Assembly: GCA_965248925.1 (NCBI GenBank)
Contig: CBDFLE010000006.1
Coordinates: 4,128,001 to 4,192,000, forward strand
Length of the DNA stretch: 64,000 nt
Origin: Candidatus Multivoradales bacterium
GTDB lineage: Bacteria; Acidobacteriota; Thermoanaerobaculia; Multivoradales; J023
Direction: 5' to 3'
The stretch's first letter is position 1. Every line of letters begins with the position of its first letter. Of this stretch, positions 5,898 through 39,657 are shown piece by piece. The notes beneath the pieces are model-generated. The model was given only the letters and a program-made list of their open reading frames with translations. It was not told the DNA's origin and did not search any database. The translations under genes were made by a program, and so were the position numbers.

Positions 5898-6087
5898 GCG
5901 ATCGGTTTCCTCTCATGCCATGGGTGGCGCCCGGCCCGGCGGCCGGCGCCGGCCCAGGTCGATGGGCGAGCGGCGTCTCTTTTGAGGTAGACCCGATCGA
6001 GGGCGGGAGGGGTGGGGAGAACTTTCGCGATCGAGCTGCGAAGAATCAGGGCGATGTCGAGGCAGAGAAACGCTGAGGGGGGTCGAA

Positions 6088-6693: not shown

Positions 6694-6872
6694 ACATGGA
6701 GTATACCTGAGCGCCTGGCGGCCCCTGTGCCACGGCTTTCAGGCAGAATTCCCCACCCGCGTCAGGTAAACTCCCCCGCAGCCGCCTTTGCAATCGATCT
6801 CATCTACATCGAGCGCAGTTCCGGAATGCCTGGCCCTGGTCGGCGGGCGTCCGGGTAGGGAGTCTGAAAAAT

Positions 6873-7517: not shown

Positions 7518-7539
7518 GACGAAGGCTCAGCGAATCACC

Positions 7540-8298: not shown

Positions 8299-8319
8299 AT
8301 TGGGGCGGCCTCCCCTCGA

Positions 8320-9657: not shown

Positions 9658-9714
9658 CCTCCTGGGCAGTTTCTGGAATTGGGCCGGTCTAGCTGGCCCA
9701 ACTTCGAGAGCATC

Positions 9715-10145
9715 TTAGACCACCCGCCGCAGACGCAGCTCGAAGGTGGCGCCCCGAGGGGTGTCGAGGCAGCGCAGCTCACCGCCTTGGGCACGAGCTA
9801 GGTGGCGCGCCAAGCTGAGGCCGAGGCCGACGCCAGGGGTCTTGCCAGCGGCGTCGTGGGCGGCGCGGTGGAAGGGGCGAAAGATGCGGCGGCGTGCCGC
9901 TGGAGTCAGGCCGGGGCCGCCATCGCTCAATCGCAGAAGCAGGTGTCGCGGTTGGCTGGTGAAGGTCAAGACGAGGGGCGCTGCCCCGTATTTGCAGGCG
10001 TTGTCGACCAGATTGAGCAGGATACGGCTGAGCGTTGCGGGCTCGGCCAGTACCGCGGTTGCGGTGTGAAGGTGCAACCCTTCGATCTTGAGTTCCAGGC
10101 CGGCTTGTGTGGTGCGTTCTTGGAGGGTCGGCAGAATGCCGAGGG
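9715..10145 (-). pseudogene. Orphan C-terminal HATPase_c fragment of a sensor histidine kinase
   Basis: N box (ILLNLVDNACKY), G1 (DGGPG), F (IFRPF), G2 (GVGLGL); no HisKA or sensor domain; the upstream sequence is REP and duplicated DNA. Confidence 0.7.
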
Positions 10146-10184
10146 ATCGGGGTGCCACCCTTCTCGGGGACGGCCGATGAACCT

Positions 10185-10209
10185 GTAGGGGCGACGCATG
10201 CGTCGTCCT
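10185..10209. repeat. GTAG-type REP-like palindrome
   Basis: GTAG-GGGCGACGCATGCGTCGTCCT: GTAG tetranucleotide followed by a near-perfect palindrome. Confidence 0.6.
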
Positions 10210-10336
10210 CTTACATGTTGTCTGCCTAGCCTTCGAGCGCCACATGCCCGGCTTTGCTCAGCTTCCAGAACAGCAGCTGGGCGTCGAGCTTGGGCATCGG
10301 GCATTGTTGCGGGATGGACTTGAGGTCGTAGCGGCC
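10210..10336 (-). repeat. 127-bp direct repeat (left copy) of the 3' end of the DUF4388 gene at 34839-34965
   Basis: Ungapped manual alignment, about 9 mismatches in 127 nt; includes the stop codon. Confidence 0.9.
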
Positions 10337-10345
10337 CGAGCTGAG

Positions 10346-11974: not shown

Positions 11975-13119
11975 TCGCCCGACGAATTGGTCAGCAGGTC
12001 GAACCCTGGACTATTGCGCGGCGTGGTCAGGAATACCGCGGTATCGGCTATTCGCTTCTGAACACAGGCCAGCGAGCGATTGCCGGCCGGACAGCGCGAA
12101 CTCACCAGTTGACGCCAATCGACACAGGCGGTATCGAGCTCCGCGAGCACTTCGGAACCGGCGCCGGCGCTACCGATCTCCGCCACCACGGCCTCGATCA
12201 GCAACCGCGCGGTCGCTACCCGGCAGCTGTCGCCGGACAGGTCGACGTGCCTTTCAGGCGCCGGCTCGTCCGGATGCTGCTCGTAGTGACAGAAGTAACC
12301 GTAGAATCCCGGTGAGCCGGACAGAACCAACAGATCGGCTACCTGCCGGCCAAGGCTGTAGGCTGAGTAGGACAGGTCGAAACCGAGCTCGAGAACCCCG
12401 TTGACGAGCTCGCCGTCCGGCGGTCCGCCACCCAGCTCAGCCGGTCGCAGCATGGCCTCTGACCACATCCGGACACCCTCGGACAGCAGCTTACGATCCT
12501 CGTATCCGAGATTGGAACCGGTCCGCGAGCCGCTGCACAGGCCGTCGCAGATATCGCCGCCCCAAGCGCCGATATGTGGAATGTTGCAGCCCGCACCGGG
12601 CACCCCTTCCGGCTTGACGTCCATCCAAGTGCAAAGGTCTTCGGTGGAGAAACCGCCCGGACCGTAGTCACAGAAGCTACCGCCGGCGCAATCGCTGGAG
12701 AAGTAGCAGGTGCAGCCATCGCGCAGCGGCTCGGTCTCGTCCCAGGCCGCGGTGTCGCCGGATGCGAAGGTATCGCCGAACACACCGACGACGGTGATCG
12801 TTCCGGTCATCCCCGAGCCGCCGTGAATCTCGCACGCATAGGGGTAAACTCCGCCCTTGTGGAACGTGTACGAGTACACCCAGAGGTCGGTCGACGGCGG
12901 TCCGCTGCCAAAGCTGCCGTCGTCCGCCAGAACGTTGTGATTGCCGCCGTCGTTGGTCCAGGTAACCGTGTCGCCGACCTCGATGGTCATCTCGGCCAAG
13001 ACGAAGGACAGGCCGGAGATGTTGACGGTGTACTCGGTGGCGCTCGCCATGGCCGGCAGCGCAAGGGCAACGGCAACCGCACAGAGCTGGAGGAACAGAG
13101 AGTTCTTCGCATCGCGCAT
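11971..13119 (-). CDS. Secreted plastocyanin/azurin-like cupredoxin fused to a Cys-rich domain of unknown function
   Basis: Signal peptide; GDTVTWTN..HNV and YACEIHGGSGMTGTITV type-1 copper ligands; Cys-rich C-terminal half. Confidence 0.8.
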   Translation of the reverse strand: MRDAKNSLFLQLCAVAVALALPAMASATEYTVNISGLSFVLAEMTIEVGDTVTWTNDGGNHNVLADDGSFGSGPPSTDLWVYSYTFHKGGVYPYACEIHGGSGMTGTITVVGVFGDTFASGDTAAWDETEPLRDGCTCYFSSDCAGGSFCDYGPGGFSTEDLCTWMDVKPEGVPGAGCNIPHIGAWGGDICDGLCSGSRTGSNLGYEDRKLLSEGVRMWSEAMLRPAELGGGPPDGELVNGVLELGFDLSYSAYSLGRQVADLLVLSGSPGFYGYFCHYEQHPDEPAPERHVDLSGDSCRVATARLLIEAVVAEIGSAGAGSEVLAELDTACVDWRQLVSSRCPAGNRSLACVQKRIADTAVFLTTPRNSPGFDLLTNSSGE

Positions 13120-13586: not shown

Positions 13587-16500
13587 CTAATGCAGAGCCA
13601 CCTTGATGCGGGGCTCTCCCTGGGCGAGCACAGTCGCCATCCAGGATCGCCCGTCGGGGGACCGCGCCTCGACCGTCCATAGGCCCGGCGGCAGGCCGTC
13701 GATCACCCCGACCCCGGCGCGAATCTTCCAGGCGTCGCGCAAGGCGCCACCCTCGGCCAGAGTCTCGACACGTCGCCCATCGGCGCCGACGACGACCAAG
13801 GCAGCGAGCTGATCCGAGCTTGCCAGATCCTCGACCGAGACTTCTAAGCGAGAGCCGGGAATCAGCTGGACCTCGACCGGAGGTCCCGGCACCGAGGCGG
13901 TGATCGTCGTCAGGCTGGCGCCCGGGGCACCGATCGCCACCTGCCATTCTCCCGCCGGCACGGTGGCCAGTTGGCAACGACCCTGGCTATCGAGAGCGCG
14001 GGATTGTTGCAACACCTGGCCGGTCGTGGCATGGGTCAAACGCGCGCTAAGCCATGCCGGTGGCCCACCCACTGCCCGCACCAAGAGCTGCAAGCCGCGG
14101 GTCGCGGCGAGCTCGATCCGGAGATCTTCGAGCTCCTGTCCGGCGACCACCTCGATCTGGGCGCTGTGCTCGGCAAATCCTTCCTTGTGCACGGTCAGCT
14201 GGTAGTGACCGGCAGGCACCCGCGGAATGAAGAAGGAACCGTCCTCGTGGCTCCCGTGGGTCACCAGGAAAGGAAACTCCCGAGGCCTGGTGACTACTCG
14301 GCGAAGCGCCAGCAAGGCGGCGCTGAGAGGGGTACCGCTCTGACTTTCGACCACCGCTCCGCTCAGACTCCCGGTCTCGAGGTCGATGGTCATCGTGCGG
14401 TCGGCGTCGAGCAGGATCTCCTCGTTGTGCACCAAGCGCTCGTGGCCGTGTCGCAGGCTCAAGAGATAGGCCCCGGGGCGCAGGTCCTCGATCTCGAAAC
14501 GACCGTCTTGGTCGGTCACCACCCGGCGGGCAACCGCCAGCCTGTTGCCTTGCAGGGTCACGTCGACCGCCGCCAGTCCGTCTTCGCCGCGGATCACCTG
14601 GCCATCCAGGTTGAGCCGGCGCTCGAACTCGAGGTCCCGTTCGATGTCCGAGTCGCCGGCACCGAGCAGCAGGCGCGCCTGGGTGTGCCGTGCTCCATCG
14701 CCCCTTGTCGCCCGCAACAGCCAGCGGCCCGGCGCCAGATTCTGCACTTCGAAGTTGCCGTCGAAATCGACGGTCCCCGATTTCGCCCGACCGGCACCAG
14801 TCTCGGCCTCGATTCGCACCCCGCTGAGCTCGGTGGGCTCGAGACCCAAGACCCGGCCATGGACTCGAACACCACGATCAAAGATCAGCTGCAAGGCGCT
14901 GCCGTCGGTATCAGGAACCACGACCGGCGCTTCGAGCCGGGCATCGGCAAGACCGACCAGCTGGCCCTCGAGTTGGTACTCGCCGTCGTCGACCGAGGGA
15001 AAGGAAAACCTGCCCCCAGAGTCGGAGGAGGTCGAGTAGAACCGTCCACCGGAAGCCGGCACGCGCAAGGTGACGTAGGCTCCGGAGAGTAGTCGGCCTG
15101 CTGCATCTACCGCTTCGCCGAGCACCTCCTGCCCTTTTTCGAGGGTGAGCGTCAGGGTGTTCTCGCCTTCCCCTACCTCGATTTCCTGTTGGATTTCCCC
15201 ATAATCAGGATGCTTCGCGATCGCGGTCTGCTCTCCCGTCGGCACGCCGGCGACCCGGTACTGTCCCTGCGCGTCGGCGGAGGTTCCGGCGTCGGCGACC
15301 TGGACATGACTCCGTGGCACCGGCTGTCCATCGCTGTCGATGACCTCGCCGGTAACCACCGCACCGGCAGACAGCTGGTAGTCGACATCCTCGACCACGG
15401 CACCTTCCGCGATCGTTAGCCGGCGCTCCTGCGGAGACACATAGCCCGCGGCTCGGATCCAAATCCTGAGCTCCCCGGCGGGGATTCCGAGCACTTCGTA
15501 GAACCCTTCTGGATCGGTTTCGGTGCCTTCGAGCCGGGGTCCGGATCGCATCGCTCGGCCGCCGGTCGCCGGCAAGGGCTCGGAATGAGCCATCGCCACT
15601 CGCGCGCCAGCTACCGGTTCACCGTCGCCAGAGGTCACCCGGCCGCGAATCGCCGCCGCCGGACGGAGCACGACCTCGATCGCGCTGCCACCGGCGCGCA
15701 CGGCGGTGAAATGCTGGTCGAGATAGCCCTCCTTGGCGACCCGGAGTCGCAACACGCGGTCTCTGCCAAGGTCGTCGAAGCGTAGGGTTCCGTCCTCACC
15801 GGTGAGAGCCTGGCGCAAGAGTTTCTCCCGCCATTCCTCGACCGGGACCAGCAGTTGGACACGGGCACCAGCGACCGGCAGGTTAACCAGGGTCGTGACT
15901 CGAACCGCCACGCTGGCCCCTTGAGGCAACACCAGATCTCCCAGCGCCGTATTCTTGCCCGCGACGATTCGAACTCGCTGCAAACGCACTGGTGCGTAAC
16001 CCGACGAGCGCAGCTCGACCTCGCACAGTCCGGGTGGCAGACCCTCGACCAGCACTTCGCCAGCCGGCGACGACTCGGCCGTCCAAGTGCGGGCGCCGCG
16101 CTCCTCCCGCGACGGCCAGACGCTCACCGCCACCGCCGCGACCGGCGCACCGTCCGAATCCAGAACTCTGCCGGTCAAGGTGGCTAGAGCGGTCAGCCTC
16201 AACCGCGGCTCGCCTGCCGCGCCGACTGTCCACGACAGCGCCGCGGTGCCCAGAGTCCGATGCTCGGCCAGCAGCTCGTAGGTGCGGCCCTCGGCCAGGC
16301 CTTCCAGACTAAAGCGGCCGTCAGCCTCGCTGAGGGTTCGCGCGGCCGCCGAGTCGGTCCGGTAGAAGGTCGTTGCTCGTTCGCTCTCCCGGGCTGACAC
16401 GGCAACTCCCGCGACCTCTCCCCCGGTGGCATCGAGCACCCGGCCGAGCACCGGGCCCGCTGCCGGCAGGCTCAAGCGGGTCGGCTCGCCAGCCGCTGAC

Positions 16501-17606
16501 TTCAAGGGCCAGATCCGGCCGGGAACGAAGCCGCTGGCCTGAGCCTGGACAAAGGTCGGCACGCCGGCGAGGTGGGCGAGCTCGAATCGGCCCTCGCGAT
16601 CGGTCAGCACCCAGCGTCCGGGGTCGACGCCGGCCCACACCAACGCACCAGCTACCGGCGTCTCGCCAGCGATCGCCAAGACCTGCCCGTGGACCGACTG
16701 TCGGTGAGGAATCCTCAGCCGATGCAACCCGCTACCGAGCTGACTGACCGTGATGACCAATGCCGACGACGAGCCGTCGGGCGCCTGCAGCCACAGCGGC
16801 TGTTCTGGTGCCGTGCCAAGGTCAGGCAGCGACACCAAGCCGGCGGCATCGGAGATCGCCAGCGGCTGCTCCCAACCTTCGGCCCAGACGACGACATTCG
16901 GCATCGCCTCGCCCGCTGCCGCGGTGACCGCCAGCCGCTCCCGGCGCTCCGCGGCACGAACTTCGAGGACCGCAGGGTCCTGAGCAGCTGGTAGCTCGTA
17001 GCTTGCCAGAGCTCGATCCGTGAGCTGCAACTCGAGCTCTTCTCCCGGCCGTCGCTGAAGCAGAATCTCTCCCCGCCGATCGGACCGGTAATGCCGCGGG
17101 GCCGGCCTCCAACCAGGCGCCGCGGCCGATTTGACCGAAGAGCGCGCCGCGACCCTGCGACCGCTCACCGGCTCGCCGGCCGAGTCGACCAGCAGGACGG
17201 AGGCAATCTCTGATCTGGAAAGCACCAGCGGCGGCAACTCGACCGATCGGGTCTCGGCGAAAGGCCCCAGCCGCATTGCCAAGAAGCCTGCCGCGGAGAC
17301 CGTGACCGTCAGCAATGTTGGAGTGCCGATCTCGACGGCGAAACGCCCCGCGGAGTCGGTAGCCACTTGCAACCGCTGGTCCATCGCGGCCCCCTCGACG
17401 CCTCGCCGGCCCTGCTCGGCGCTGGTCGGCAAGTCGGCAAGGCTCACCCGCGCCCCGGCCAGCGGACGGCCCAGCCCATCTAGCACCGTCCCAGAGAGGA
17501 TCCAGAGTTGCTTGGCGGCGGCGGCGGGCGGCAGCCCCATCCATGCCAGATAGCCCACCATCAGCAGGGCATTGATCCTTCGCAGTGTTACAGGCCTTCG
17601 AAACAT
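13587..17606 (-). CDS. Large secreted carboxypeptidase-regulatory-like (beta-sandwich) repeat protein
   Basis: Likely start ATG 17606 (MFRRPV.., signal peptide ending AAAAK); about 12 repeats of G.V.D..G.PV.GA.V...TD..GRF. Confidence 0.85.
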   Translation of the reverse strand: MFRRPVTLRRINALLMVGYLAWMGLPPAAAAKQLWILSGTVLDGLGRPLAGARVSLADLPTSAEQGRRGVEGAAMDQRLQVATDSAGRFAVEIGTPTLLTVTVSAAGFLAMRLGPFAETRSVELPPLVLSRSEIASVLLVDSAGEPVSGRRVAARSSVKSAAAPGWRPAPRHYRSDRRGEILLQRRPGEELELQLTDRALASYELPAAQDPAVLEVRAAERRERLAVTAAAGEAMPNVVVWAEGWEQPLAISDAAGLVSLPDLGTAPEQPLWLQAPDGSSSALVITVSQLGSGLHRLRIPHRQSVHGQVLAIAGETPVAGALVWAGVDPGRWVLTDREGRFELAHLAGVPTFVQAQASGFVPGRIWPLKSAAGEPTRLSLPAAGPVLGRVLDATGGEVAGVAVSARESERATTFYRTDSAAARTLSEADGRFSLEGLAEGRTYELLAEHRTLGTAALSWTVGAAGEPRLRLTALATLTGRVLDSDGAPVAAVAVSVWPSREERGARTWTAESSPAGEVLVEGLPPGLCEVELRSSGYAPVRLQRVRIVAGKNTALGDLVLPQGASVAVRVTTLVNLPVAGARVQLLVPVEEWREKLLRQALTGEDGTLRFDDLGRDRVLRLRVAKEGYLDQHFTAVRAGGSAIEVVLRPAAAIRGRVTSGDGEPVAGARVAMAHSEPLPATGGRAMRSGPRLEGTETDPEGFYEVLGIPAGELRIWIRAAGYVSPQERRLTIAEGAVVEDVDYQLSAGAVVTGEVIDSDGQPVPRSHVQVADAGTSADAQGQYRVAGVPTGEQTAIAKHPDYGEIQQEIEVGEGENTLTLTLEKGQEVLGEAVDAAGRLLSGAYVTLRVPASGGRFYSTSSDSGGRFSFPSVDDGEYQLEGQLVGLADARLEAPVVVPDTDGSALQLIFDRGVRVHGRVLGLEPTELSGVRIEAETGAGRAKSGTVDFDGNFEVQNLAPGRWLLRATRGDGARHTQARLLLGAGDSDIERDLEFERRLNLDGQVIRGEDGLAAVDVTLQGNRLAVARRVVTDQDGRFEIEDLRPGAYLLSLRHGHERLVHNEEILLDADRTMTIDLETGSLSGAVVESQSGTPLSAALLALRRVVTRPREFPFLVTHGSHEDGSFFIPRVPAGHYQLTVHKEGFAEHSAQIEVVAGQELEDLRIELAATRGLQLLVRAVGGPPAWLSARLTHATTGQVLQQSRALDSQGRCQLATVPAGEWQVAIGAPGASLTTITASVPGPPVEVQLIPGSRLEVSVEDLASSDQLAALVVVGADGRRVETLAEGGALRDAWKIRAGVGVIDGLPPGLWTVEARSPDGRSWMATVLAQGEPRIKVALH

Positions 17607-17771
17607 GCTCGGTGGCTCCTCTACGCAGGGGTTCGGTAGCCAGCGCCCGGGCCAGCCGGCGGCGGCCGGCACCTGGACGCCAGTCACGGTCTCACGGCAG
17701 CAGGGTCTCACAAGAAACGGCGGTTCCCACTGGGTTGACGGCCTCGGTGTCGGTGGCCGTTCTAGAAAGGA

Positions 17772-17860
17772 GACGCGGAAGGAGTGCCGGACGGGGGACA
17801 AACGAGGGTGGCCGATTTCCGCTAACGACTTTGGCCCACCTGCATCGACTTGCCCGCGTC
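17772..17860. promoter_or_regulatory. Divergent pair of putative ECF promoters
   Basis: Minus strand TGTCCC(17800-17795)-N17-CGCGTC(17777-17772); plus strand TGGCCC(17832)-N17-CGCGTC(17855). Repeated in every tandem unit. Confidence 0.6.
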
Positions 17861-17921
17861 ATCCATACAAGAAACGCGAGTTCTCGTTCCAAGAGGGCTG
17901 CTCAACAACGGAGGCAACGAA

Positions 17922-18434
17922 ATGACACGGAAAAACATCTTGCTACTCGGTCTGCTAACCGCCGCGCTGACGATGCCGGCGACCCCTTCCTGGGGGGCGA
18001 CTTGCTTCGGCTCCAACGCCACGATTCTCGGCACCGGCGGCGCTGACTTGATCTACGGCACCTCCGGGGCCGACGTGATCGATGCCAAAGGTGGCAACGA
18101 CGTGATCGATGCCAAAGGTGGCAACGACAAGATCTGTGGCCGGTCGGGCAACGACAAGATCACCGCCGGGTCGGGCCACGACTCGGTCGAGGGCGGCAAT
18201 GGCAATGACCAGATCGATGGTGACAGCGGCAGGGACGATGTGCGAGGAAACGCCGGGGACGACACTGTTGATGGCGGTATCGGACATGACGACGTTTGGG
18301 GGTACGGCGGCAGGGACTTTGTTCTCGGTGGCGGCGGCACCAACTACGTTCACGGCGGCAACGGCATCGACCGGTCGCTCCTGGGTCAGGGCAGCCAGAC
18401 TTTCGTCTCGGTCGAAGTCCTCGGAAGCCCATAG
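17922..18434 (+). CDS. Small secreted Ca-binding protein with RTX/hemolysin-type GGxGxD repeats, copy 1
   Basis: RBS GGAGG, ATG 17922; signal peptide ending PSWG; TCFG..ATILGT..ICG Cys pair; nonapeptide repeats. Confidence 0.85.
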   Translation: MTRKNILLLGLLTAALTMPATPSWGATCFGSNATILGTGGADLIYGTSGADVIDAKGGNDVIDAKGGNDKICGRSGNDKITAGSGHDSVEGGNGNDQIDGDSGRDDVRGNAGDDTVDGGIGHDDVWGYGGRDFVLGGGGTNYVHGGNGIDRSLLGQGSQTFVSVEVLGSP

Positions 18435-19039
18435 CTCGCCAGAGCTCGATCCGTGAGCTGCAACTCGAGCTCTTCTCCCGGCCGTCGCTGAAGCAGAATC
18501 TCTCCCCGCCGATCGGACCGGTAATGCCGCGGGGCCGGCCTCCAACCAGGCGCCGCGGCCGATTTGACCGAAGAGCGCGCCGCGACCCTGCGACCGCTCA
18601 CCGGCTCGCCGGCCGAGTCGACCAGCAGGACGGAGGCAATCTCTGATCTGGAAAGCACCAGCGGCGGCAACTCGACCGATCGGGTCTCGGCGAAAGGCCC
18701 CAGCCGCATTGCCAAGAAGCCTGCCGCGGAGACCGTGACCGTCAGCAATGTTGGAGTGCCGATCTCGACGGCGAAACGCCCCGCGGAGTCGGTAGCCACT
18801 TGCAACCGCGAGTCCATCGCGGCCCCCTCGACGCCTCGCCGGCCCTGCTCGGCGCTGGTCGGCAAGTCGGCAAGGCTCACCCGCGCCCCGGCCAGCGGAC
18901 GGCCCAGCCCATCTAGCACCGTCCCGGAGAGGATCCAGAGTTGCTTGGCGGCGGCGGCGGGCGGCAGCCCCATCCATGCCAGATAGCCCACTATCAGCAG
19001 GGCATTGATCCTTCGCAGTGTTACAGGCCTTCGAAACAT
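18432..19039 (-). pseudogene. 3'-truncated duplicate of the carboxypeptidase-repeat gene
   Basis: First ~200 codons near-identical to 17606-16999, then runs antisense into Ca-binding copy 1. Confidence 0.85.
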
Positions 19040-19354
19040 GCTCGGTGGCTCCTCTACGCAGGGGTTCGGTAGCCAGCGCCCGGGCCAGCCGGCGGCGGCC
19101 GGCACCTGGACGCCAGTCACGGTCTCACGGCAGCAGGGTCTCACAAGAAACGGCGGTTCCCACTGGGTTGACGGCCTCGGTGTCGGTGGCCGTTCTAGAA
19201 AGGAGACGCGGAAGGAGTGCCGGACGGGGGACAAACGAGGGTGGCCGATTTCCGCTAACGACTTTGGCCCACCTGCATCGACTTGCCCGCGTCATCCATA
19301 CAAGAAACGCGAGCTCTCGTTCCAAGAGGGCTGCTCAACAACGGAGGCAACGAA

Positions 19355-19867
19355 ATGACACGGAAAAACATCTTGCTACTCGGTCTGCTAACCGCCGCGC
19401 TGACGATGCCGGCGACCCCTTCCTGGGGGGCGACTTGCTTCGGCTCCAACGCCACGATTCTCGGCACCGGCGGCGCTGACTTGATCTACGGCACCTCCGG
19501 GGCCGACGTGATCGATGCCAAAGGTGGCAACGACGTGATCGATGCCAAAGGTGGCAACGACAAGATCTGTGGCCGGTCGGGCAACGACAAGATCACCGCC
19601 GGGTCGGGCCACGACTCGGTCGAGGGCGGCAATGGCAATGACCAGATCGATGGTGACAGCGGCAGGGACGATGTGCGAGGAAACGCCGGGGACGACACTG
19701 TTGATGGCGGTATCGGACATGACGACGTTTGGGGGTACGGCGGCAGGGACTTTGTTCTCGGTGGCGCCGGCATCAACTACGTTCACGGCGGCAACGGCAT
19801 CGACCGGTCGCTCCTGGGTCAGGGCAACCAGACTTTCGTCTCGGTCGAAGTCCTCGGAAGCCCATAG
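19355..19867 (+). CDS. Secreted Ca-binding RTX-repeat protein, copy 2
   Basis: Copy 1 + 1433; 3 amino-acid differences near the C-terminus. Confidence 0.85.
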   Translation: MTRKNILLLGLLTAALTMPATPSWGATCFGSNATILGTGGADLIYGTSGADVIDAKGGNDVIDAKGGNDKICGRSGNDKITAGSGHDSVEGGNGNDQIDGDSGRDDVRGNAGDDTVDGGIGHDDVWGYGGRDFVLGGAGINYVHGGNGIDRSLLGQGNQTFVSVEVLGSP

Positions 19868-20472
19868 CTCGCCAGAGCTCGATCCGTGAGCTGCAACTCG
19901 AGCTCTTCTCCCGGCCGTCGCTGAAGCAGAATCTCTCCCCGCCGATCGGACCGGTAATGCCGCGGGGCCGGCCTCCAACCAGGCGCCGCGGCCGATTTGA
20001 CCGAAGAGCGCGCCGCGACCCTGCGACCGCTCACCGGCTCGCCGGCCGAGTCGACCAGCAGGACGGAGGCAATCTCTGATCTGGAAAGCACCAGCGGCGG
20101 CAACTCGACCGATCGGGTCTCGGCGAAAGGCCCCAGCCGCATTGCCAAGAAGCCTGCCGCGGAGACCGTGACCGTCAGCAATGTTGGAGTGCCGATCTCG
20201 ACGGCGAAACGCCCCGCGGAGTCGGTAGCCACTTGCAACCGCGAGTCCATCGCGGCCCCCTCGACGCCTCGCCGGCCCTGCTCGGCGCTGGTCGGCAAGT
20301 CGGCAAGGCTCACCCGCGCCCCGGCCAGCGGACGGCCCAGCCCATCTAGCACCGTCCCAGAGAGGATCCAGAGTTGCTTGGCGGCGGCGGCGGGCGGCAG
20401 CCCCATCCATGCCAGATAGCCCACCATCAGCAGGGCATTGATCCTTCGCAGTGTTACAGGCCTTCGAAACAT
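19865..20472 (-). pseudogene. Second 3'-truncated duplicate of the carboxypeptidase-repeat gene
   Basis: Same as 18432-19039, shifted by 1433. Confidence 0.85.
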
Positions 20473-20745
20473 GCTCGGTGGCTCCTCTACGCAGGGGTTC
20501 GGTAGCCAGCGCCCGGGCCAGCCGGCGGCGGCTGGCACCTGGACGCCAGTCACAGTCTCACGGCAGCAGGGTCTCACAAGAAACGGCTCTAGAAAGGGCA
20601 CGCGGAAGGAGTGACGGACGGGGGACAAAGGAGGGTGCCCGATTTCCGCCAACGATCTTGGCCCACTTCTGGCGAGTTGTCCGCGTCATCCCTCAGGAAA
20701 TCCGAACGCTCTTTCTAGGAGTGGTTCCACAACGGAGGAAACGAG

Positions 20746-21267
20746 ATGACATGGAAAAGCACCCTTCTACTCGGTCTGATAGCCGCCGCGCTGACGATGC
20801 CGGCGACCCCTTCCTGGGGGGCGACTTGCTTCGGCTCCAACGCTACGATTCTCGGCACCGGCGGCGCTGACTTGATCTACGGCACCTCCGGGGCCGACGT
20901 GATCGATGCCGAAGGTGGCAACGACGTGATCGATGCCAAAGCTGGCAACGACAAGATCTGTGGCCGGTCGGGCAACGACAAGATCACCGCCGGGTCGGGC
21001 CACGACTCGGTCGAGGGCGGCAATGGCTATGACCAGATCGCTGGTGGCAGCGGCCGTGACGATGTGCGAGGAAACGCCGGGGACGACACTGTTGATGGCG
21101 GTATCGGACATGACGACGTTTGGGGGTACGGCGGCAACGACTTTGTTCTCGGTGGCGACGGCACCAACCTCGTCCACGGCGGAAACGGCTACGACTATTC
21201 GACGACACTGGGTCCGGGCAACCAGACCTTCGTCTCGATCGAAGTTCTCTTTCCGCGGCCGCTGTAG
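20746..21267 (+). CDS. Secreted Ca-binding RTX-repeat protein, copy 3
   Basis: 173 aa, MTWKSTLLLG signal peptide variant, GGxGxD repeats. Confidence 0.85.
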   Translation: MTWKSTLLLGLIAAALTMPATPSWGATCFGSNATILGTGGADLIYGTSGADVIDAEGGNDVIDAKAGNDKICGRSGNDKITAGSGHDSVEGGNGYDQIAGGSGRDDVRGNAGDDTVDGGIGHDDVWGYGGNDFVLGGDGTNLVHGGNGYDYSTTLGPGNQTFVSIEVLFPRPL

Positions 21268-21308
21268 CGCCCCCGACCGGACTTGACGGCCTTGAGCGCA
21301 GGTTCGCC

Positions 21309-21335
21309 AGAGCTGGCCTTCGACGGGCCAGCTCT
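21309..21335. terminator. Hairpin between convergent Ca-binding and sigma genes (also 22568-22594 and equivalents in the later units)
   Basis: AGAGCTGGCC-ttcgacg-GGCCAGCTCT; variant GGAGCCGGCC-tccgacg-GGCCGGCTCT. Confidence 0.6.
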
Positions 21336-21346
21336 CCGGGGCCGCT

Positions 21347-21847
21347 CTACTGCCCGGGTCCGCCTCCCTCTCGTAGCTGGCGTTGCAGGAAAGCCCGGGC
21401 GCAACGCCATTCCCGCTTAACGGTCCGACCGCTCACCCCCAAGGCCGAAGCGGTCTCCTCGACCGACAGACCAGCGAAGTAGCGCAGCTCGACGACCTTG
21501 CCCGCGCGCCGATCCCGGGCCTCCAGCTCGCACAGGGCGGCGTCGAGTTCCAACCAATCGGTAGGGCTGGCGCTGGCCACGTTTGCGGCCATGATGAGCG
21601 GTAGCACCGGCGCCCCTTCGCCACGTTTGAGGCTGACCTTACGGCGAAAATGATCGACCAGGATGCGGCGCATGATGCGGGCGGCGATGGCAAAGAAATG
21701 CTCTCAATTCTGCCAATCTGAACGCCCCTGCTTGACCAACCGAAGGTAGGCTTCGTTGACCAGCTCGGTGGGCCGCAGGGACGGGTTCGCCGGGTCGCTG
21801 GAGAGTCGTCGAGCGGCAATGGCATGAAGTGCCGGATAGATCATCCG
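21347..21847 (-). pseudogene. 5'-truncated ECF sigma copy 1 with CGA>TGA nonsense (108-aa sigma4-containing ORF 21347-21673 remains)
   Basis: Near-identical to 25124-25624 apart from the missing first ~27 codons, the stop after WQN and a few SNPs. Confidence 0.85.
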
Positions 21848-22004
21848 GCGGAAAGGAGACGCGGAAGGAGTGCCGGACGGGGGACAAAGGAGGGTGCCCG
21901 ATTTCCGCCAACGATCTTGGCCCACTTCTGGCGAGTTGTCCGCGTCATCCCTCAGGAAATCCGAACGCTCTTTCTAGGAGTGGTTCCACAACGGAGGAAA
22001 CGAG

Positions 22005-22526
22005 ATGACATGGAAAAGCACCCTTCTACTCGGTCTGATAGCCGCCGCGCTGACGATGCCGGCGACCCCTTCCTGGGGGGCGACTTGCTTCGGCTCCAAC
22101 GCTACGATTCTCGGCACCGGCGGCGCTGACTTGATCTACGGCACCTCCGGGGCCGACGTGATCGATGCCAAAGGTGGCAACGACGTGATCGATGCCAAAG
22201 GTGGCAACGACAAGATCTGTGGCCGGTCGGGCAACGACAAGATCACCGCCGGGTCGGGCCACGACTCGGTCGAGGGCGGCAATGGCAATGACCAGATCGA
22301 TGGTGACAGCGGCAGGGACGATGTGCGAGGAAACGCCGGGGACGACACTGTTGATGGCGGTATCGGACATGACGACGTTTGGGGGTACGGCGGCAACGAC
22401 TTTGTTCTCGGTGGCGACGGCACCAACCTCGTCCACGGCGGAAACGGCTACGACTATTCGACGACACTGGGTCCGGGCAACCAGACCTTCGTCTCGATCG
22501 AAGTCTTGCTTTCCGCAGCCGTGTAG
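22005..22526 (+). CDS. Secreted Ca-binding RTX-repeat protein, copy 4
   Basis: 173 aa; C-terminus LLSAAV. Confidence 0.85.
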   Translation: MTWKSTLLLGLIAAALTMPATPSWGATCFGSNATILGTGGADLIYGTSGADVIDAKGGNDVIDAKGGNDKICGRSGNDKITAGSGHDSVEGGNGNDQIDGDSGRDDVRGNAGDDTVDGGIGHDDVWGYGGNDFVLGGDGTNLVHGGNGYDYSTTLGPGNQTFVSIEVLLSAAV

Positions 22527-22605
22527 CGCTCCTGGGCGGACCCGACGGCTGCGAGCGTGGGTTCGTTGGAGCCGGCCTCCGACGGGCCGGCTCTCAGGGG
22601 CCGCT

Positions 22606-23106
22606 CTAGGCCCTGGGTCCGCCTCCCTCTCGTAGCTGGCGTTGCAGGAAAGCCCGGGCGCAACGCCATTCCCGCTTAACGGTCCGACCGCTCACCCCCA
22701 AAGCCGAAGCGGTCTCCTCGACCGACAGACCAGCGAAGTAGCGCAGCTCGACGACCTTGCCCGCGCGCCGATCCCGGGCCTCCAGCTCGCACAGGGCGGC
22801 GTCGAGTTCTAACCAATCGGTAGGGCTGGCGCTGGCCACGTTTGCGGCCATGATGAGCGGTAGCACCGGCGCCCCTTCACCACGTTTGAGGCTGACCTTA
22901 CGGCGAAAATGATCGACCAGGATGCGGCGCATGATGCGGGCGGCGATGGCAAAGAAATGCTCTCAATTCTGCCAATCTGAACGCCCCTGCTTGACCAACC
23001 GAAGGTAGGCTTCGTTGACCAGCTCGGTGGGCCGCAGGGACGGGTTCGCCGGGTCGCTGGAGAGTCGTCGAGCGGCAATGGCATGAAGTGCCGGATAGAT
23101 CATCCG
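22606..23106 (-). pseudogene. 5'-truncated ECF sigma copy 2 with nonsense codon
   Basis: As copy 1, shifted by 1259. Confidence 0.85.
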
Positions 23107-23263
23107 GCGGAAAGGAGACGCGGAAGGAGTGCCGGACGGGGGACAAAGGAGGGTGCCCGATTTCCGCCAACGATCTTGGCCCACTTCTGGCGAGTTGTCC
23201 GCGTCATCCCTCAGGAAATCCGAACGCTCTTTCTAGGAGTGGTTCCACAACGGAGGAAACGAG

Positions 23264-23785
23264 ATGACATGGAAAAGCACCCTTCTACTCGGTCTGATAG
23301 CCGCCGCGCTGACGATGCCGGCGACCCCTTCCTGGGGGGCGACTTGCTTCGGCTCCAACGCTACGATTCTCGGCACCGGCGGCGCTGACTTGATCTACGG
23401 CACCTCCGGGGCCGACGTGATCGATGCCAAAGGTGGCAACGACGTGATCGATGCCAAAGGTGGCAACGACAAGATCTGTGGCCGGTCGGGCAACGACAAG
23501 ATCACCGCCGGGTCGGGCCACGACTCGGTCGAGGGCGGCAATGGCAATGACCAGATCGATGGTGACAGCGGCAGGGACGATGTGCGAGGAAACGCCGGGG
23601 ACGACACTGTTGATGGCGGTATCGGACATGACGACGTTTGGGGGTACGGCGGCAACGACTTTGTTCTCGGTGGCGACGGCACCAACCTCGTCCACGGCGG
23701 AAACGGCTACGACTATTCGACGACACTGGGTCCGGGCAACCAGACCTTCGTCTCGATCGAAGTTCTCTTTCCGCGGCCGCTGTAG
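23264..23785 (+). CDS. Secreted Ca-binding RTX-repeat protein, copy 5
   Basis: 173 aa; C-terminus LFPRPL. Confidence 0.85.
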   Translation: MTWKSTLLLGLIAAALTMPATPSWGATCFGSNATILGTGGADLIYGTSGADVIDAKGGNDVIDAKGGNDKICGRSGNDKITAGSGHDSVEGGNGNDQIDGDSGRDDVRGNAGDDTVDGGIGHDDVWGYGGNDFVLGGDGTNLVHGGNGYDYSTTLGPGNQTFVSIEVLFPRPL

Positions 23786-23864
23786 CGCCCCCGACCGGAC
23801 TTGACGGCCTTGAGCGCAGGTTCGCCAGAGCTGGCCTTCGACGGGCCAGCTCTCCGGGGCCGCT

Positions 23865-24365
23865 CTACTGCCCGGGTCCGCCTCCCTCTCGTAGCTGGCG
23901 TTGCAGGAAAGCCCGGGCGCAACGCCATTCCCGCTTAACGGTCCGACCGCTCACCCCCAAAGCCGAAGCGGTCTCCTCGACCGACAGACCAGCGAAGTAG
24001 CGCAGCTCGACGACCTTGCCCGCGCGCCGATCCCGGGCCTCCAGCTCGCACAGGGCGGCGTCGAGTTCCAACCAATCGGTAGGGCTGGCGCTGGCCACGT
24101 TTGCGGCCATGATGAGCGGTAGCACCGGCGCCCCTTCACCACGTTTGAGGCTGACCTTACGGCGAAAATGATCGACCAGGATGCGGCGCATGATGCGGGC
24201 GGCGATGGCAAAGAAATGCTCTCAATTCTGCCAATCTGAACGCCCCTGCTTGACCAACCGAAGGTAGGCTTCGTTGACCAGCTCGGTGGGCCGCAGGGAC
24301 GGGTTCGCCGGGTCGCTGGAGAGTCGTCGAGCGGCAATGGCATGAAGTGCCGGATAGATCATCCG
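23865..24365 (-). pseudogene. 5'-truncated ECF sigma copy 3 with nonsense codon
   Basis: As copy 1, shifted by 2518. Confidence 0.85.
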
Positions 24366-24522
24366 GCGGAAAGGAGACGCGGAAGGAGTGCCGGACGGGG
24401 GACAAAGGAGGGTGCCCGATTTCCGCCAACGATCTTGGCCCACTTCTGGCGAGTTGTCCGCGTCATCCCTCAGGAAATCCGAACGCTCTTTCTAGGAGTG
24501 GTTCCACAACGGAGGAAACGAG

Positions 24523-25044
24523 ATGACATGGAAAAGCACCCTTCTACTCGGTCTGATAGCCGCCGCGCTGACGATGCCGGCGACCCCTTCCTGGGGGGCG
24601 ACTTGCTTCGGCTCCAACGCTACGATTCTCGGCACCGGCGGCGCTGACTTGATCTACGGCACCTCCGGGCCCGACGTGATCGATGCCAAAGGTGGCAACG
24701 ACGTGATCGATGCCAAAGGTGGCAACGACAAGGTCTGTGGCCGGTCGGGCAACGACGTGATCGACGCCGGGTCGGGCCACGACCGGGTCGAGGGCGGCAA
24801 TGGCAATGACCAGATCGATGGTGGCAGCGGCAGTGACAATGTGCGAGGAAACGCCGGGGACGACACTGTTGACGGCGGTATCGGACATGACGACGTTTGG
24901 GGGTACGGCGGCAACGACTTTGTTCTCGGTGGCGACGGCAACAACCTCGTTCACGGCGGCAACGGCTTCGACCAGTCGACGATCCTGGGTCCGGGCATCC
25001 AGACTTTCGTCTCGGTCGAACTCCTCCTTCCGGGGCCGCTGTAG
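24523..25044 (+). CDS. Secreted Ca-binding RTX-repeat protein, copy 6 (most divergent of the B units)
   Basis: 173 aa; C-terminus FDQSTILGPGIQTFVSVELLLPGPL. Confidence 0.85.
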   Translation: MTWKSTLLLGLIAAALTMPATPSWGATCFGSNATILGTGGADLIYGTSGPDVIDAKGGNDVIDAKGGNDKVCGRSGNDVIDAGSGHDRVEGGNGNDQIDGGSGSDNVRGNAGDDTVDGGIGHDDVWGYGGNDFVLGGDGNNLVHGGNGFDQSTILGPGIQTFVSVELLLPGPL

Positions 25045-25123
25045 CGCTCCTGGGCGGACCCGACGGCTGCGAGCGTGGGTTCGTTGGAGCCGGCCTCCGA
25101 CGGGCCGGCTCTCAGGGGCCGCT

Positions 25124-25705
25124 CTAGGCCCTGGGTCCGCCTCCCTCTCGTAGCTGGCGTTGCAGGAAAGCCCGGGCGCAACGCCATTCCCGCTTAACGG
25201 TCCGACCGCTCACCCCCAAAGCCGAAGCGGTCTCCTCGACCGACAGACCAGCGAAGTAGCGCAGCTCGACGACCTTGCCCGCGCGCCGATCCCGGGCCTC
25301 CAGCTCGCACAGGGCGGCGTCGAGTTCTAACCAATCGGTAGGGCTGGCGCTGGCCACGTTTGCGGCCATGATGAGCGGTAGCACCGGCGCCCCTTCACCA
25401 CGTTTGAGGCTGACCTTACGGCGAAAATGATCGACCAGGATGCGGCGCATGATGCGGGCGGCGATGGCAAAGAAATGCTCTCGATTCTGCCAATCTGAAC
25501 GCCCCTGCTTGACCAATCGAAGGTAGGCTTCGTTGACCAGCTCGGTGGGCTGCAGGGACGGGTTCGCCGGGTCGCTGGAGAGTCGTCGAGCGGCAATGGA
25601 ATGAAGTGCCGGATAGATCATCCGCATCAGATCTCGTTCGGCACCCGCGTCTCCCCCTTGCCATTTCTGAAGCAGTGCGGTGATGTCGGCGGAAGGTGTG
25701 CTCAT
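25124..25705 (-). CDS. ECF-type sigma factor, TIGR02999 (Ser/Thr-kinase-associated) family
   Basis: DITALLQKWQGGD, SLQPTELVNEAYLRL, WQNREHFFAIAARIMRRILVD, VVELRYFAGLSVEETA..RTVKREW. Confidence 0.93.
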   Translation of the reverse strand: MSTPSADITALLQKWQGGDAGAERDLMRMIYPALHSIAARRLSSDPANPSLQPTELVNEAYLRLVKQGRSDWQNREHFFAIAARIMRRILVDHFRRKVSLKRGEGAPVLPLIMAANVASASPTDWLELDAALCELEARDRRAGKVVELRYFAGLSVEETASALGVSGRTVKREWRCARAFLQRQLREGGGPRA

Positions 25706-25727
25706 TCGGGATCTCCAAGCGGCTTGC

Positions 25728-28397
25728 TCAACCCTTGCTCATCCATTCTTCGAGATCCGCCGCCAGCGACTCGCGGCCGGTCGTCTGGTAGAGCTCGACC
25801 AGCCAGCGGGCGGCCCTGAAACGAAACCGATTCGACAGCTTACCATCGCGCGACAAGACCTCGTGACAAGGGATGAGCAAATTCTCCGCCTCCTCCACCC
25901 GACCCTGGCGCAAGAAGGCTCCACCAAGGTCAGCCTTGGCAACACAGGCATTGCGCCCGTCGGCGCCGCCGCGAGAGTGACGGCTAAAGATGGCGATGGC
26001 GCCGCGAAGATGATCCTCGGCTTCGCCGGGGCGGGCCAGCTCGATCAGCGTCGCTCCCAACCCGGCCTTGAAGTAGCCCATGCGCAGATTATCCTCCCCG
26101 CCGCCGCTCAGCTGGAGTTCGATGGCGCGGCGAAAATAGCCTTCGGCCTCGGCGAAGCCTTGGTTGGAAAAAAGCACGCCACCGATGTTGTTGACTTTGG
26201 TGGCCAGCTCGGGATTCTCGGAGCCCAACAGACCTTCCTGGATACGCAGAGCGCGCTGATAGTTGGCCAGCGCCCGGACACCGTCTCCCAGATCCCGATA
26301 GAGACTTCCCAAGGTGGTCAGCGCATCGGCCACCATGGGGTGCTCTTCGCCATAGAGTTCTTGGGCCAGCTGGGCCGCCTGCCGGCCCAGCACCAGGCCC
26401 TCCTCGGCACGCCCTTCACGGCCCGCCAGGCGGGCCAGGCGGCGCAGGGCCCGCGCCGCGGTCGGATGCCGTGCCGCATCGAGGGAGTCTAGCAGCGCCA
26501 GGCTCTGGCGAAAAAGCTCCGAGGCCTCGCCGCGGTCGCCTTCGAGCTCCAGGGTTTCCCCCAAGGCCACCAAACCACTGGCGTGCTCCAAGCTCTGGGC
26601 ACCAAAATAGGCGATCGTCTCTTCGACCGCCCGACGATGTAGAACGATGCCGGCCGGACGGTTGCTACGGTCGAACTCGATATCTCCCAACAGCCGGAGG
26701 GTATCGGCGGAGCCGGCGCTCGCGGTGGCGAGAAATCCCCGCAGTGCGACTTGCGCGGTTTCGTGGGCGCCGTCCAGATCGCCCTGTACGTACTGCAAGC
26801 TCGCCAGCTCCTTTTGGGTCAGAGCGAGGCTCTCGCTGGCCGGGCCCAAAGTCTGTTCTTTGAGGATCAGCGCCTCTTCCAACGCTCCACTGGCCTGCGA
26901 AAACAGTCCCAACGCTGCTTGCACCGAGCCGATGGTATGCAGCAGGTCCGCTTTGGCGACCAGATCGTCGTCCAGACTATTGCGGATCGAACGCACGCCG
27001 GCCTCGAGAATCTCCCGAGCGGTGACATTGGCTCCCCGGGTGCGAGCCGGGTCCGCTTGCAGGAAGGCATCTTTGAGCAGGGTGCTGACCCGCTCTGCCC
27101 GGCCTTGTTGCTGACGGGCCAGATCCCGCTCCCGTGCCGCCTCCCGAGCCAGGAACAAGGAGGTGATGGCAAAGGCGAGCACCAGCGCCAGAAACGCCAC
27201 CGAGGCACCCACCGCCAGTAGGTGTCGGCGCATGAATTTGCCGATGCGGTAGCGCCAAGTCGGCGGCCTGGCGGCGATTGGCAGACCTCGACGGCAACGG
27301 TCGAGATCGTCGACCCAACGATCCACCGACCCGTAGCGGGCCGCTGGATCCGACCGCAAGGCCTTGGCCAGAACAATCTCCAGGTCCCCTGCCAGGGCTC
27401 GCCGCAGCCCCTGGACCGTCGTATTTCGGCACTCGGCTGCCGCCGCCAGCTCCGCCGAGGCGCCGCGCCGGCGGCCCGGCAGCCAGCGACCGATCGGCCA
27501 AGAGCCCGGTTCCCCGCGTGTTGCGGTAGCTTGAGAGTCGGACTGCTCCGGCGGTCGTCCACTGAGCAGTTCATCTAGGAGCACCGCCAGCGAGTAGACG
27601 TCCGAAGCCGTCGAGATAGGAGCCCCCGCCCGTTGTTCGGGGCTGGCGTAGCGCGGGGTGAGAAAGGAGTCTCGGGTCTTGGTTTGAGGATCCGCCGTAC
27701 TCCGCAAGAGCTTGGCAATGCCGAAGTCGAGGAGCTTGGGCTCGCCGTCTTCGGTGACCAGGATATTGCCTGGCTTGAGGTCTCGATGGACCACCAATCT
27801 GCGGTGGGCGAAGCTCACCGCAGAGCACACTTTGAAAAACAGCTCGAGGCGTGCCTCGATGGAGAGGCGGCGGCGGTCGCAGGCCGCGGTGATGGCCTCG
27901 CCCTCGACATAATCCATCACCAAGTAGGGCAGGCCGTCAGCCGTCGTACCGCCATCGAGGAGACGCGCGATGTTGGGGTGGTCCAGCATCGCCAGGATCT
28001 GCCGCTCCTGACGAAAACGATCGAGGGCCAGGGCGCTGTCGAGACCCAGAGGCAGGATCTTGATGGCGACTCGCTGGTCGTACTCCTGGTCCGCCCGCTC
28101 GGCCAGGTACACCACTCCCATGCCACCTCGGCCGAGCCGACTTTTCAGCCGGTAAGGACCCAGCTGCCGGTCGATCCAGGATTCGTCTTGCAGCTCCGCG
28201 AGGACGGTCGGGAGCCGCGCGGCATTCTCGGTCGGCGACAGCAACTCCAGGTCGTTGCGGAGCAGGGAATCGACTTCCCTGGCCAGCCAAGGATCTTTCT
28301 CGGCGACCTCCACGAGGCGCTCGGCGCGGCTTTCCTCGTCCGCTTCTGAAAGTTCCAGAAAGAGTTCCTTGGCTCGCTGCCAGCTTTTTTCGACCAT
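25728..28397 (-). CDS. Hanks-type Ser/Thr protein kinase with TM helix and TPR repeats
   Basis: LGRGGMGVVY, VAIK, HRDLKPGN, LLDFGIAK, TPRYASPEQ; TM segment near residue 400; TPR C-terminus. Confidence 0.95.
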   Translation of the reverse strand: MVEKSWQRAKELFLELSEADEESRAERLVEVAEKDPWLAREVDSLLRNDLELLSPTENAARLPTVLAELQDESWIDRQLGPYRLKSRLGRGGMGVVYLAERADQEYDQRVAIKILPLGLDSALALDRFRQERQILAMLDHPNIARLLDGGTTADGLPYLVMDYVEGEAITAACDRRRLSIEARLELFFKVCSAVSFAHRRLVVHRDLKPGNILVTEDGEPKLLDFGIAKLLRSTADPQTKTRDSFLTPRYASPEQRAGAPISTASDVYSLAVLLDELLSGRPPEQSDSQATATRGEPGSWPIGRWLPGRRRGASAELAAAAECRNTTVQGLRRALAGDLEIVLAKALRSDPAARYGSVDRWVDDLDRCRRGLPIAARPPTWRYRIGKFMRRHLLAVGASVAFLALVLAFAITSLFLAREAARERDLARQQQGRAERVSTLLKDAFLQADPARTRGANVTAREILEAGVRSIRNSLDDDLVAKADLLHTIGSVQAALGLFSQASGALEEALILKEQTLGPASESLALTQKELASLQYVQGDLDGAHETAQVALRGFLATASAGSADTLRLLGDIEFDRSNRPAGIVLHRRAVEETIAYFGAQSLEHASGLVALGETLELEGDRGEASELFRQSLALLDSLDAARHPTAARALRRLARLAGREGRAEEGLVLGRQAAQLAQELYGEEHPMVADALTTLGSLYRDLGDGVRALANYQRALRIQEGLLGSENPELATKVNNIGGVLFSNQGFAEAEGYFRRAIELQLSGGGEDNLRMGYFKAGLGATLIELARPGEAEDHLRGAIAIFSRHSRGGADGRNACVAKADLGGAFLRQGRVEEAENLLIPCHEVLSRDGKLSNRFRFRAARWLVELYQTTGRESLAADLEEWMSKG

Positions 28398-36228: not shown

Positions 36229-36338
36229 AGGATTGGACAGCGCCCGCGGCGCCGGCCCATGACTATATCCGAATCTGCACCAATCTCTCTGTAGGCTGAA
36301 TCGGTGGTCTTTCTCTGTGCTCGATGAACCGCAGGCGA

Positions 36339-36827: not shown

Positions 36828-36872
36828 TGTCTTGGGCTCCGGGTCGGCGGTTGGCTAGTCAGCGGTGGGTGC

Positions 36873-39641: not shown

Positions 39642-39657
39642 CTCTCGGAGGCGACGG

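Follow-up and report, generated by a model that had tools for sequence, protein, structure and literature searches.

Tandem gene amplification in bacteria begins with illegitimate joining and continues by RecA-dependent unequal exchange, as set out in the gene accordion and innovation–amplification–divergence models, and tandem duplications are quickly lost through homologous recombination unless they are selected. Here we describe a head-to-tail array in a 64,000-nucleotide stretch of DNA (the window, whose own positions are used throughout) from Candidatus Multivoradales bacterium, assembly GCA_965248925.1, contig CBDFLE010000006.1, positions 4,128,001 to 4,192,000 of the forward strand. Between window positions 16990 and 25624, 2.5 units of 1433 bp are followed by 4 units of 1259 bp, and together these carry six intact copies of a gene for a small secreted protein of RTX (GGxGxD) repeats. 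The reading that we favor, at a probability of roughly 0.55, is that the array is a real, multi-step tandem amplification of the small-subunit gene of a conserved extracellular module, retained for dosage and/or variants of its product. The other member of the module would be the left neighbor, a large secreted protein referred to here as BIG.

A second described system bears on the right flank of the array, where a gene for an extracytoplasmic function (ECF) sigma factor adjoins a protein kinase gene. Parts of two reports (PMC13147305, PMC7826278) present co-occurrence with a Hanks-type kinase as the hallmark of group ECF43, and describe sigma factors of this type as being activated via direct phosphorylation, by the co-encoded kinase, of a threonine in region 2.2.

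Anatomy of the array and its RTX genes

The array was dissected by self-comparison of window positions 15000–28000, which resolved two adjoining tandem arrays. Units of the first (A, 1433-bp period) contain the 5′ end of BIG, the divergent intergenic region and an RTX gene. A1 (16990–18422) and A2 (18423–19855), each of 1433 bp, are followed by a partial unit, A3 (19856–20587, 732 bp), that holds only a BIG 5′ fragment; A units are 99.3% identical across 2165 bp. The second array (B, 1259-bp period) comprises B1 (20592–21850, or from 20588 if four nucleotides, TCTA, of original BIG-side context at its left end are included), B2 (21851–23109), B3 (23110–24368), each of 1259 bp, and the terminal B4 (24369–25624), which runs on into the intact ECF sigma gene. 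B units are 95–98% identical, with 96.9% identity at an offset of 1259 and 98.2% at an offset of 2518. Common to A and B units is only ~660 bp, made up of the gene and 157 bp upstream of it, at 86–87% identity overall.

Both kinds of unit carry truncated passengers from the neighboring genes. The A-unit passenger consists of the first ~205 codons of BIG together with the BIG upstream region; the fragments in A2 (18423–19039, minus strand) and A3 (19856–20472, minus strand) are 97–98% identical to BIG residues 1–209 and match Pfam CarboxypepD_reg. The B-unit passenger is the last ~167 of the 193 codons of the ECF sigma gene, and the copies in B1 (21347–21850), B2 (22606–23109) and B3 (23865–24368), all on the minus strand, are truncated at their 5′ ends; a 108-amino acid open reading frame (ORF) of the B2 copy matches PF07638 positions 83–184. 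All of these fragments are still open, those of BIG with signal peptide, first domain and full upstream region retained, and those of the sigma gene as 108-amino acid ORFs spanning sigma region 4. If they are expressed, a free N-terminal BIG domain and a sigma-4 peptide are possible products. The 23 ORFs of at least 100 amino acids in 471–11974 and 34855–49443 include no transposase or integrase family, and neither do the other ORFs scanned. In all of these respects (two breakpoint sets, truncated passengers from either side and no transposase or integrase nearby) the anatomy is as an earlier note on this DNA had described it.

The six RTX genes all lie on the plus strand, with GGAGG placed 7–8 nt ahead of the ATG (8 nt in A1). 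Genes A1 (17922–18434) and A2 (19355–19867) encode 170 amino acids, and genes B1 (20746–21267), B2 (22005–22526), B3 (23264–23785) and B4 (24523–25044) encode 173, B4 being the most divergent copy. Each product begins with basic and then hydrophobic residues ending in ...PSWG|ATC, a signal peptide as judged by eye, and the mature protein would comprise ~147 residues of beta-roll only, with two cysteines, Cys28 and Cys72. HemolysinCabind (PF00353, the GGxGxD nonapeptides) was the sole Pfam family matched (3.7e-23). An AlphaFold2 model built from a 24-sequence alignment (mean predicted local distance difference test score 83.8, predicted TM-score 0.71) has 15 three-residue strands at 9-residue spacing, which form a continuous beta-roll over residues 43–169. 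The best PDB matches by Foldseek were the RTX blocks of adenylate cyclase toxin and the RTX domains of lipases and proteases, all at low TM-scores (0.26–0.43). A search of 5.8 billion proteins returned no close homologue, the best matches having 43–55% identity over part of the length, and within its own genome the protein has six matches (E ≤ 0.001), all inside the array. The earlier note had read the protein as a signal peptide, a cysteine pair and GGxGxD repeats, encoded by six intact genes with copy-specific C-terminal tails, and had proposed structure prediction; the family searches, the ORFs and the predicted beta-roll all agree with that description.

The junctions of the two arrays differ. 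The A|A junction sits 12 nt before the RTX stop codon, and the end of the A products (GSP*) may be native or may have been created by the join. Immediately after this junction (18423–18437 and 19856–19870, compared with 16990–17004), four mismatches fall in the first 15 nt and four in the next 717 nt; the cluster may stem from error-prone joining, or may be a patch of what was originally the 3′ end of the RTX gene. At the B|B junction the sequence is ...GATCATCCG + GCG | GAAAGGAG..., with the core CATCCG+GCG|GAAAGGAG, and its parent sequences are without evident homology. The join between A3 and B1 carries a 39-bp deletion relative to 17722–17760. Because B1 alone retains the TCTA of BIG-side context, it probably once adjoined BIG.

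Differences between the copies are distributed in patches. Genes A1 and B3 show a single difference between gene positions +38 and +391, as against 41 in the ~195 bp upstream and ~47 over the final ~143 bp. A1, A2, B2 and B3 share one central tract without a difference, and B1 and B4 each have their own version. Outside the gene, B1 is like B3 and B2 is like B4, with two spacer types (alpha and beta) separated by 18 differences in 79 positions. Between B2 and B4 there are 33 differences within the 522-bp gene, none within the 79-bp spacer and 7 within the part derived from the sigma gene, 3 of these at the unit boundary. These patchy differences require at least two illegitimate duplications, later duplications of units and doublets, and several gene-conversion events. 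The array is best described as a mosaic whose anatomy is observed and whose order of events we infer from the sequence, as follows. An illegitimate duplication that broke 157 nt ahead of the RTX gene and within the convergent ECF sigma gene would have produced the 1259-bp unit, and a second, with one breakpoint in BIG and the other at the stop codon of the RTX gene, the 1433-bp unit. Homologous unequal exchange would then have added units, including a 2518-bp doublet (B1B2 resembles B3B4), and gene conversion would have carried one central 354-bp tract into four of the six copies.

Copies were also compared codon by codon, although the counts are small and distorted by conversion. Three non-synonymous and no synonymous codon differences separate A1 from A2, and five and one, respectively, separate B1 from B2. 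For the more distant pairs the counts were 14 and 5 (A1–B2), 14 and 4 (B2–B4) and 22 and 3 (A1–B4), giving ratios of non-synonymous to synonymous change (dN/dS) of 1.08, 1.18 and 3.2. As far as such counts can be relied upon, values of ~1–3 exclude strong purifying selection among the copies. At least five protein variants are encoded, and most of their differences lie in the N terminus of the signal peptide, the final third of the beta-roll and the C-terminal tail, which ends in ...VLGSP, ...VLFPRPL, ...VLLSAAV or ...LLLPGPL.

The RTX and BIG gene pair in related genomes

BIG (13587–17606, minus strand) is predicted to be a secreted protein of 1339 amino acids with ~7–10 CarboxypepD_reg (transthyretin-like) domains; PF13620 matches at 1.9e-107 in 10 stretches. 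Its likely start is the ATG at 17606 (MFRRPVTL...), which is followed by a hydrophobic N terminus, and apart from the two array fragments it is single-copy in its own genome. Weak Pfam matches to SdrD_B/SpaA-type domains were also seen, and the NCBIfam model for the anammox S-layer glycoprotein Kustd1514 scored 71.9 bits, far below its cut-off of 1400. An Atlas search with BIG returned generic CarboxypepD_reg clusters only. All of its named relatives come from Thermoanaerobaculia or unclassified Acidobacteriota metagenome-assembled genomes, where they are annotated only as "carboxypeptidase regulatory-like domain-containing protein".

For comparison with relatives, a pair was defined as a small signal-peptide RTX gene within ~0.5 kb of a CarboxypepD_reg-repeat gene of 1200–1450 amino acids. 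The window holds such a pair, divergently arranged and with 315 bp between the RTX and BIG starts. The relatives comprised 40 genomes from 12 families, the nearest belonging to the same family and none to the same genus. RTX matches (E ≤ 0.001) were found on 47 of their contigs, 23 of which had a BIG match (E ≤ 1e-30) within 3.5 kb. When 30 of the relatives' loci were searched by tblastn with four window proteins, the RTX gene lay directly beside BIG in 23, mostly upstream on the same strand and with 180–520 nt between the matches; in two loci (L121 and L122) BIG was found by tblastn and RTX by HMMER only, and five (L111, L112, L127, L128 and L129) were without BIG. Conversely, among the 12 strongest matches to BIG in the relatives (E ≤ 1e-122), 11 adjoin an RTX match, and the exception begins 497 nt from a contig end. 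In total, the pair is present in 16 of the 40 genomes and 4 of the 12 sampled families. A comparison with the orthologous locus of relatives had been suggested in the earlier note, and it is in the relatives' loci that the recurrent pair came to light. Because the two genes adjoin recurrently, BIG was taken as the likely partner of the RTX protein, and the two would act together outside the cytoplasm. No description of the pair was found in the literature searched (Acidobacteria/Thermoanaerobaculia, carboxypeptidase regulatory-like, calcium-binding/RTX).

The RTX partners in relatives align with the window protein at 31–44% identity. An N-terminal cysteine, Cys28, is invariant in all 28 aligned sequences, a second cysteine in the motif D..CG is usual, and a hydrophobic N terminus is common. 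One relative (locus L110, G014:C174 1–15000) has three diverged RTX genes around a single BIG, at 1113–1598, 6076–6615 and 6756–7217, one of them before BIG and two after; these paralogues have a different N-terminal cysteine pattern, CLCLIGCN. This locus is an independent multiplication of the same partner gene.

Regulatory genes, upstream motif and remaining neighborhood

The intact ECF sigma gene at the right end of the array (25124–25705, minus strand) is of the kinase-associated type (PF07638, 5.7e-51; TIGR02999, 203.5 bits against a cut-off of 126). Its region 2.2 reads QPTE (LQPTELVNEAY) and, judged by eye without a group alignment, resembles the QATE of EcfK. Located 22 nt upstream is a gene for a Hanks-type Ser/Thr kinase with TPR repeats (25728–28397, minus strand; Pkinase 1.5e-40, TPR_12). 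The kinase-TPR family is much expanded, with at least 37 matches in the window's own genome, and all 37 scored candidates there, as in several relatives, had E ≤ 1e-60. With at least 37 paralogue matches per genome and a best match of 43%, the kinase is useless as an orthology anchor. ECF and kinase genes flank the pair in 6 of the 30 relatives' loci (L106, L113, L117, L119, L122 and L130); the sigma gene comes first in those six and the kinase gene comes first in the window.

A scan of 16800–25800 for the sigma-70 consensus gave no sites, so the promoter pair that the earlier note had placed in every unit was not recovered, and the only terminator candidates were weak and hairpin-like, inside gene ends. 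An Rfam scan of 16500–26000 (E ≤ 0.1) gave no matches. A Shine–Dalgarno-like motif, GAAAGGAGA, was observed at 17765–17773 (plus strand), 157 nt upstream of the RTX start, and its equivalent forms the first base of each B unit (20592, 21851, 23110 and 24369). The motif [AG]AAAGGAG[AG] occurs 42–207 nt upstream of 9 of 27 RTX genes, compared with an expectation of 0.0045 per 235 nt and a background of 16 occurrences in 835 kb on both strands; the relatives' loci that have it are L102, L104, L110, L117, L119, L122 and L125. An upstream ORF behind the motif was considered and rejected, as it has 13 codons in A and 36 in B units and is not conserved in relatives.

Downstream of BIG, and likewise on the minus strand, lie genes for a cupredoxin-domain protein (11971–13119) and an FG-GAP/ASPIC-UnbV protein (10346–11974). 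In the 30 relatives' loci neither has a homologue next to the pair, the sole FG-GAP match being in L111, which is without BIG. Type III-B CRISPR-Cas effector genes occupy 471–5897 on the minus strand and encode Cmr3 (471–1676), Cas10/Cmr2 (1673–3670), a RAMP protein (3667–4857) and a Cas6-like protein (4854–5897).

Readings of the array and comparison with known systems

In the favored reading, the module would consist of a small Sec-exported RTX beta-roll protein and the ~1340-amino acid secreted beta-sandwich protein BIG, and in several relatives it would be under or beside a Ser/Thr kinase-linked ECF sigma factor. Six promoter-bearing genes would replace one and supply more RTX protein relative to single-copy BIG, and the array would be kept by selection for dosage and/or variants of the RTX protein acting with BIG, possibly as a Ca2+-folded cap, linker or coat subunit outside the cytoplasm. 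Several points weigh against this account. An association between RTX protein and BIG is deduced from gene neighborhood; 24 of the 47 RTX-matching contigs are without a nearby BIG, most of them being short contigs or having weak matches within long RTX proteins (open frames of 577–1640 amino acids). The window pair is divergent, not co-directional, and all 25 of the relatives' partners examined have a C-terminal D.C.NGET..NCE-like cysteine pair that the window copies do not. The kinase-first order differs from that of relatives, and the local ECF/kinase pair may not regulate the module. Further objections concern the read evidence and the divergence of the copies, and are taken up with the rival explanations that they favor.

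One such explanation is that the assembler over-expanded a one- or two-copy gene, or placed variants from different strains in tandem. In its favor, the data set behind the genome is metagenome-like (22 million contigs in run X1); against it, the genome is in 6 contigs, with the window inside a 5.2-Mb contig. Read support came from the Logan contigs of four public runs (X1–X4), which contain 76–80% of sampled words of 16500–26000; all four derive from one sample of one study, possibly the assembly's own source, and are hence not independent evidence. Contigs of 185 nt bridge the A|A junction in X1 (19716–19900) and in X3 (18283–18467, at the start of A2), so this junction is present in short-read-derived contigs of two runs, but among the pieces listed no contig or read bridges the B|B junction or spans the array. 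Depth was used as a consistency check only, because the depth of a contig is a flat average that does not give a copy number: the depth of each piece, relative to the flanking single-copy contig, was compared with the mean 31-mer multiplicity of the piece in the assembly. All six pieces agreed in X1 (depth/multiplicity 3.11/2.74, 2.04/1.83, 1.65/1.56, 4.07/3.50, 2.27/2.00 and 4.46/4.00) and five of six in X4 (1.24/1.83, 3.94/3.50, 4.41/4.61, 1.96/2.00, 4.07/3.92 and 0.99/1.00), so that unit-specific pieces stood at approximately 2, 3 and 4 times the flank, as the assembly predicts, and a piece specific to B4 at 0.99 times. X2 and X3 matched the assembled copy numbers only partly. In X3 the three A-part pieces agreed (2.90/2.67, 1.96/1.83 and 1.80/1.56), whereas the three B-part pieces were lower than in the assembly (3.79/4.70, 1.99/3.50 and 2.58/3.92) and the flank depths were unequal (12.2 and 5.2); in X2 none of the five pieces fitted the left-flank depth (5.62) and all five fitted the right-flank depth (2.0). 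The copy number, which the earlier note had proposed to check, is supported by the A|A contigs and by the depths in X1 and X4, and in part by those in X2 and X3. Because the A|A junction contigs exist and the X1 and X4 depths follow the assembled copy numbers, an artefact is unlikely; the distinct illegitimate sequences of the junctions also speak against it, and we would assign it only a very small probability. The population itself may be somewhat heterogeneous.

The main rival is a neutral or transiently useful amplification, in which chance duplications and unequal crossing-over produced redundant copies that drift and are scrambled by gene conversion. The dN/dS values of ~1–3 in all informative pairs are as much to be expected from relaxed constraint on redundant copies as from diversifying selection, and the useless passenger fragments are still present. 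The intactness of six short ORFs with 25 or fewer changes is likewise not significant and would be unsurprising by chance. Against drift, the units have diverged by 1–5%, with some patches reaching ~20–30%, which implies long retention of a structure prone to recombinational collapse. The sole indel between A and B in the coding part is in frame (3 nt), as opposed to indels of 1 and 2 nt upstream, the Gly/Asp scaffold of the RTX repeats is retained in all six copies, and the relative described above multiplied the same partner gene independently. Neutral amplification is on these grounds a possible account that we hold to be the less probable one. That the protein is a toxin or bacteriocin of the classical RTX kind, or serves the nearby Rhs protein (29495–34531) as a decoy or partner, as the earlier note had suggested, is hardly credible. 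The nonapeptide repeats, NCBIfam matches to models of RTX hemolysins that stay below threshold (54.5 bits, cut-off 1000) and the proximity of the Rhs gene are in favor of this reading; however, the N-terminal Sec-type signal, a mature protein of ~147 residues of beta-roll without any further domain or effector part, and the lack of ABC or HlyD-type exporter genes among the ORFs scanned in 471–49443 mean that the protein does not belong to the RTX toxins as a family. The 30 relatives' loci have no homologue of Rhs, or of the other window neighbors tested, next to the pair, and the suggested link to Rhs is not supported.

Retention of a real amplification for dosage and/or variants thus remains the reading that we prefer. 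The gene accordion under repeated selection that the earlier note proposed is plausible from the sequence: head-to-tail units with novel junctions, and divergence that argues for long retention, accord with it, and the dN/dS values, which fit relaxed constraint equally well, are the part that does not single it out. A more ambitious form, which we regard as rather doubtful, is that the six genes are a surface-variation cassette set and the RTX protein an exchangeable cap or coat of a BIG-built fiber or layer. Conversion would then reshuffle copies that differ in upstream regions, beta-roll faces and C-terminal tails, a changed surface would be shown to phages, predators or minerals, and the neighboring kinase-linked ECF sigma factor would switch the system on. 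If this were true, Thermoanaerobaculia-like Acidobacteriota would have a new Ca2+-dependent surface structure of two components, with a means of variation built into it.

Long-lasting, diverged natural amplifications are seldom seen intact, because short-read assemblies collapse such arrays. With its two junction types, doublet duplication and clear conversion tracts, the present array is a good natural record of growth and homogenization. It is a well-preserved example of a known process, and its interest lies also in pointing to an uncharacterized surface module, the pair being conserved across four or more families of an acidobacterial order that is uncultured. The amplification would mark out the small RTX protein as the member of the pair whose quantity or diversity is important.

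As in described tandem gene amplifications, the array is head-to-tail, its novel junctions have little or no homology, expansion appears to have proceeded via the repeats themselves, neighboring genes were carried along as truncated passengers, and variants accumulated in the copies. It departs from the typical case in having two independent breakpoint sets nested around one gene, and from laboratory-selected arrays, which are near-identical and unstable, in that its units are 1–5% diverged and show conversion mosaics. The RTX protein shares the GGxGxD repeats and a predicted beta-roll of 9-residue period with the RTX domains of Bordetella CyaA (block V), serralysin-type proteases and family I.3 lipases. 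Unlike these proteins, it has a Sec-type N-terminal signal instead of a C-terminal type I signal and no catalytic or pore-forming domain, its mature form being all beta-roll with a conserved N-terminal cysteine; the partners in relatives differ further by their added C-terminal D.C.NGET..NCE cysteine pair.

BIG, as a secreted chain of ~10 Ig-like/transthyretin-type domains, is comparable to repeat surface proteins such as MSCRAMM-type adhesins and Kustd1514. It differs from them in that neither an anchor nor a sortase signal nor any sign of an S-layer was seen, and its score is far below the Kustd1514 cut-off of 1400. The ECF sigma and kinase genes recall the ECF43-type pairs EcfP/PknT of Vibrio parahaemolyticus and EcfK/PknS of Xanthomonas citri, as far as these are described in the relevant parts of one report (PMC13147305): a sigma gene lies beside a Ser/Thr kinase gene, no adjacent anti-sigma family was seen, and a threonine (here in QPTE, where the group consensus is QTTA) appears by eye to stand in place of the acidic DxxD motif of region 2.2. 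Here the kinase gene precedes the sigma gene, unlike in those pairs, and the kinship to ECF43 was judged without the models of that group. The 6 of 30 relatives' loci in which such a pair flanks the module are what link this ECF43-like system to the RTX and BIG genes.

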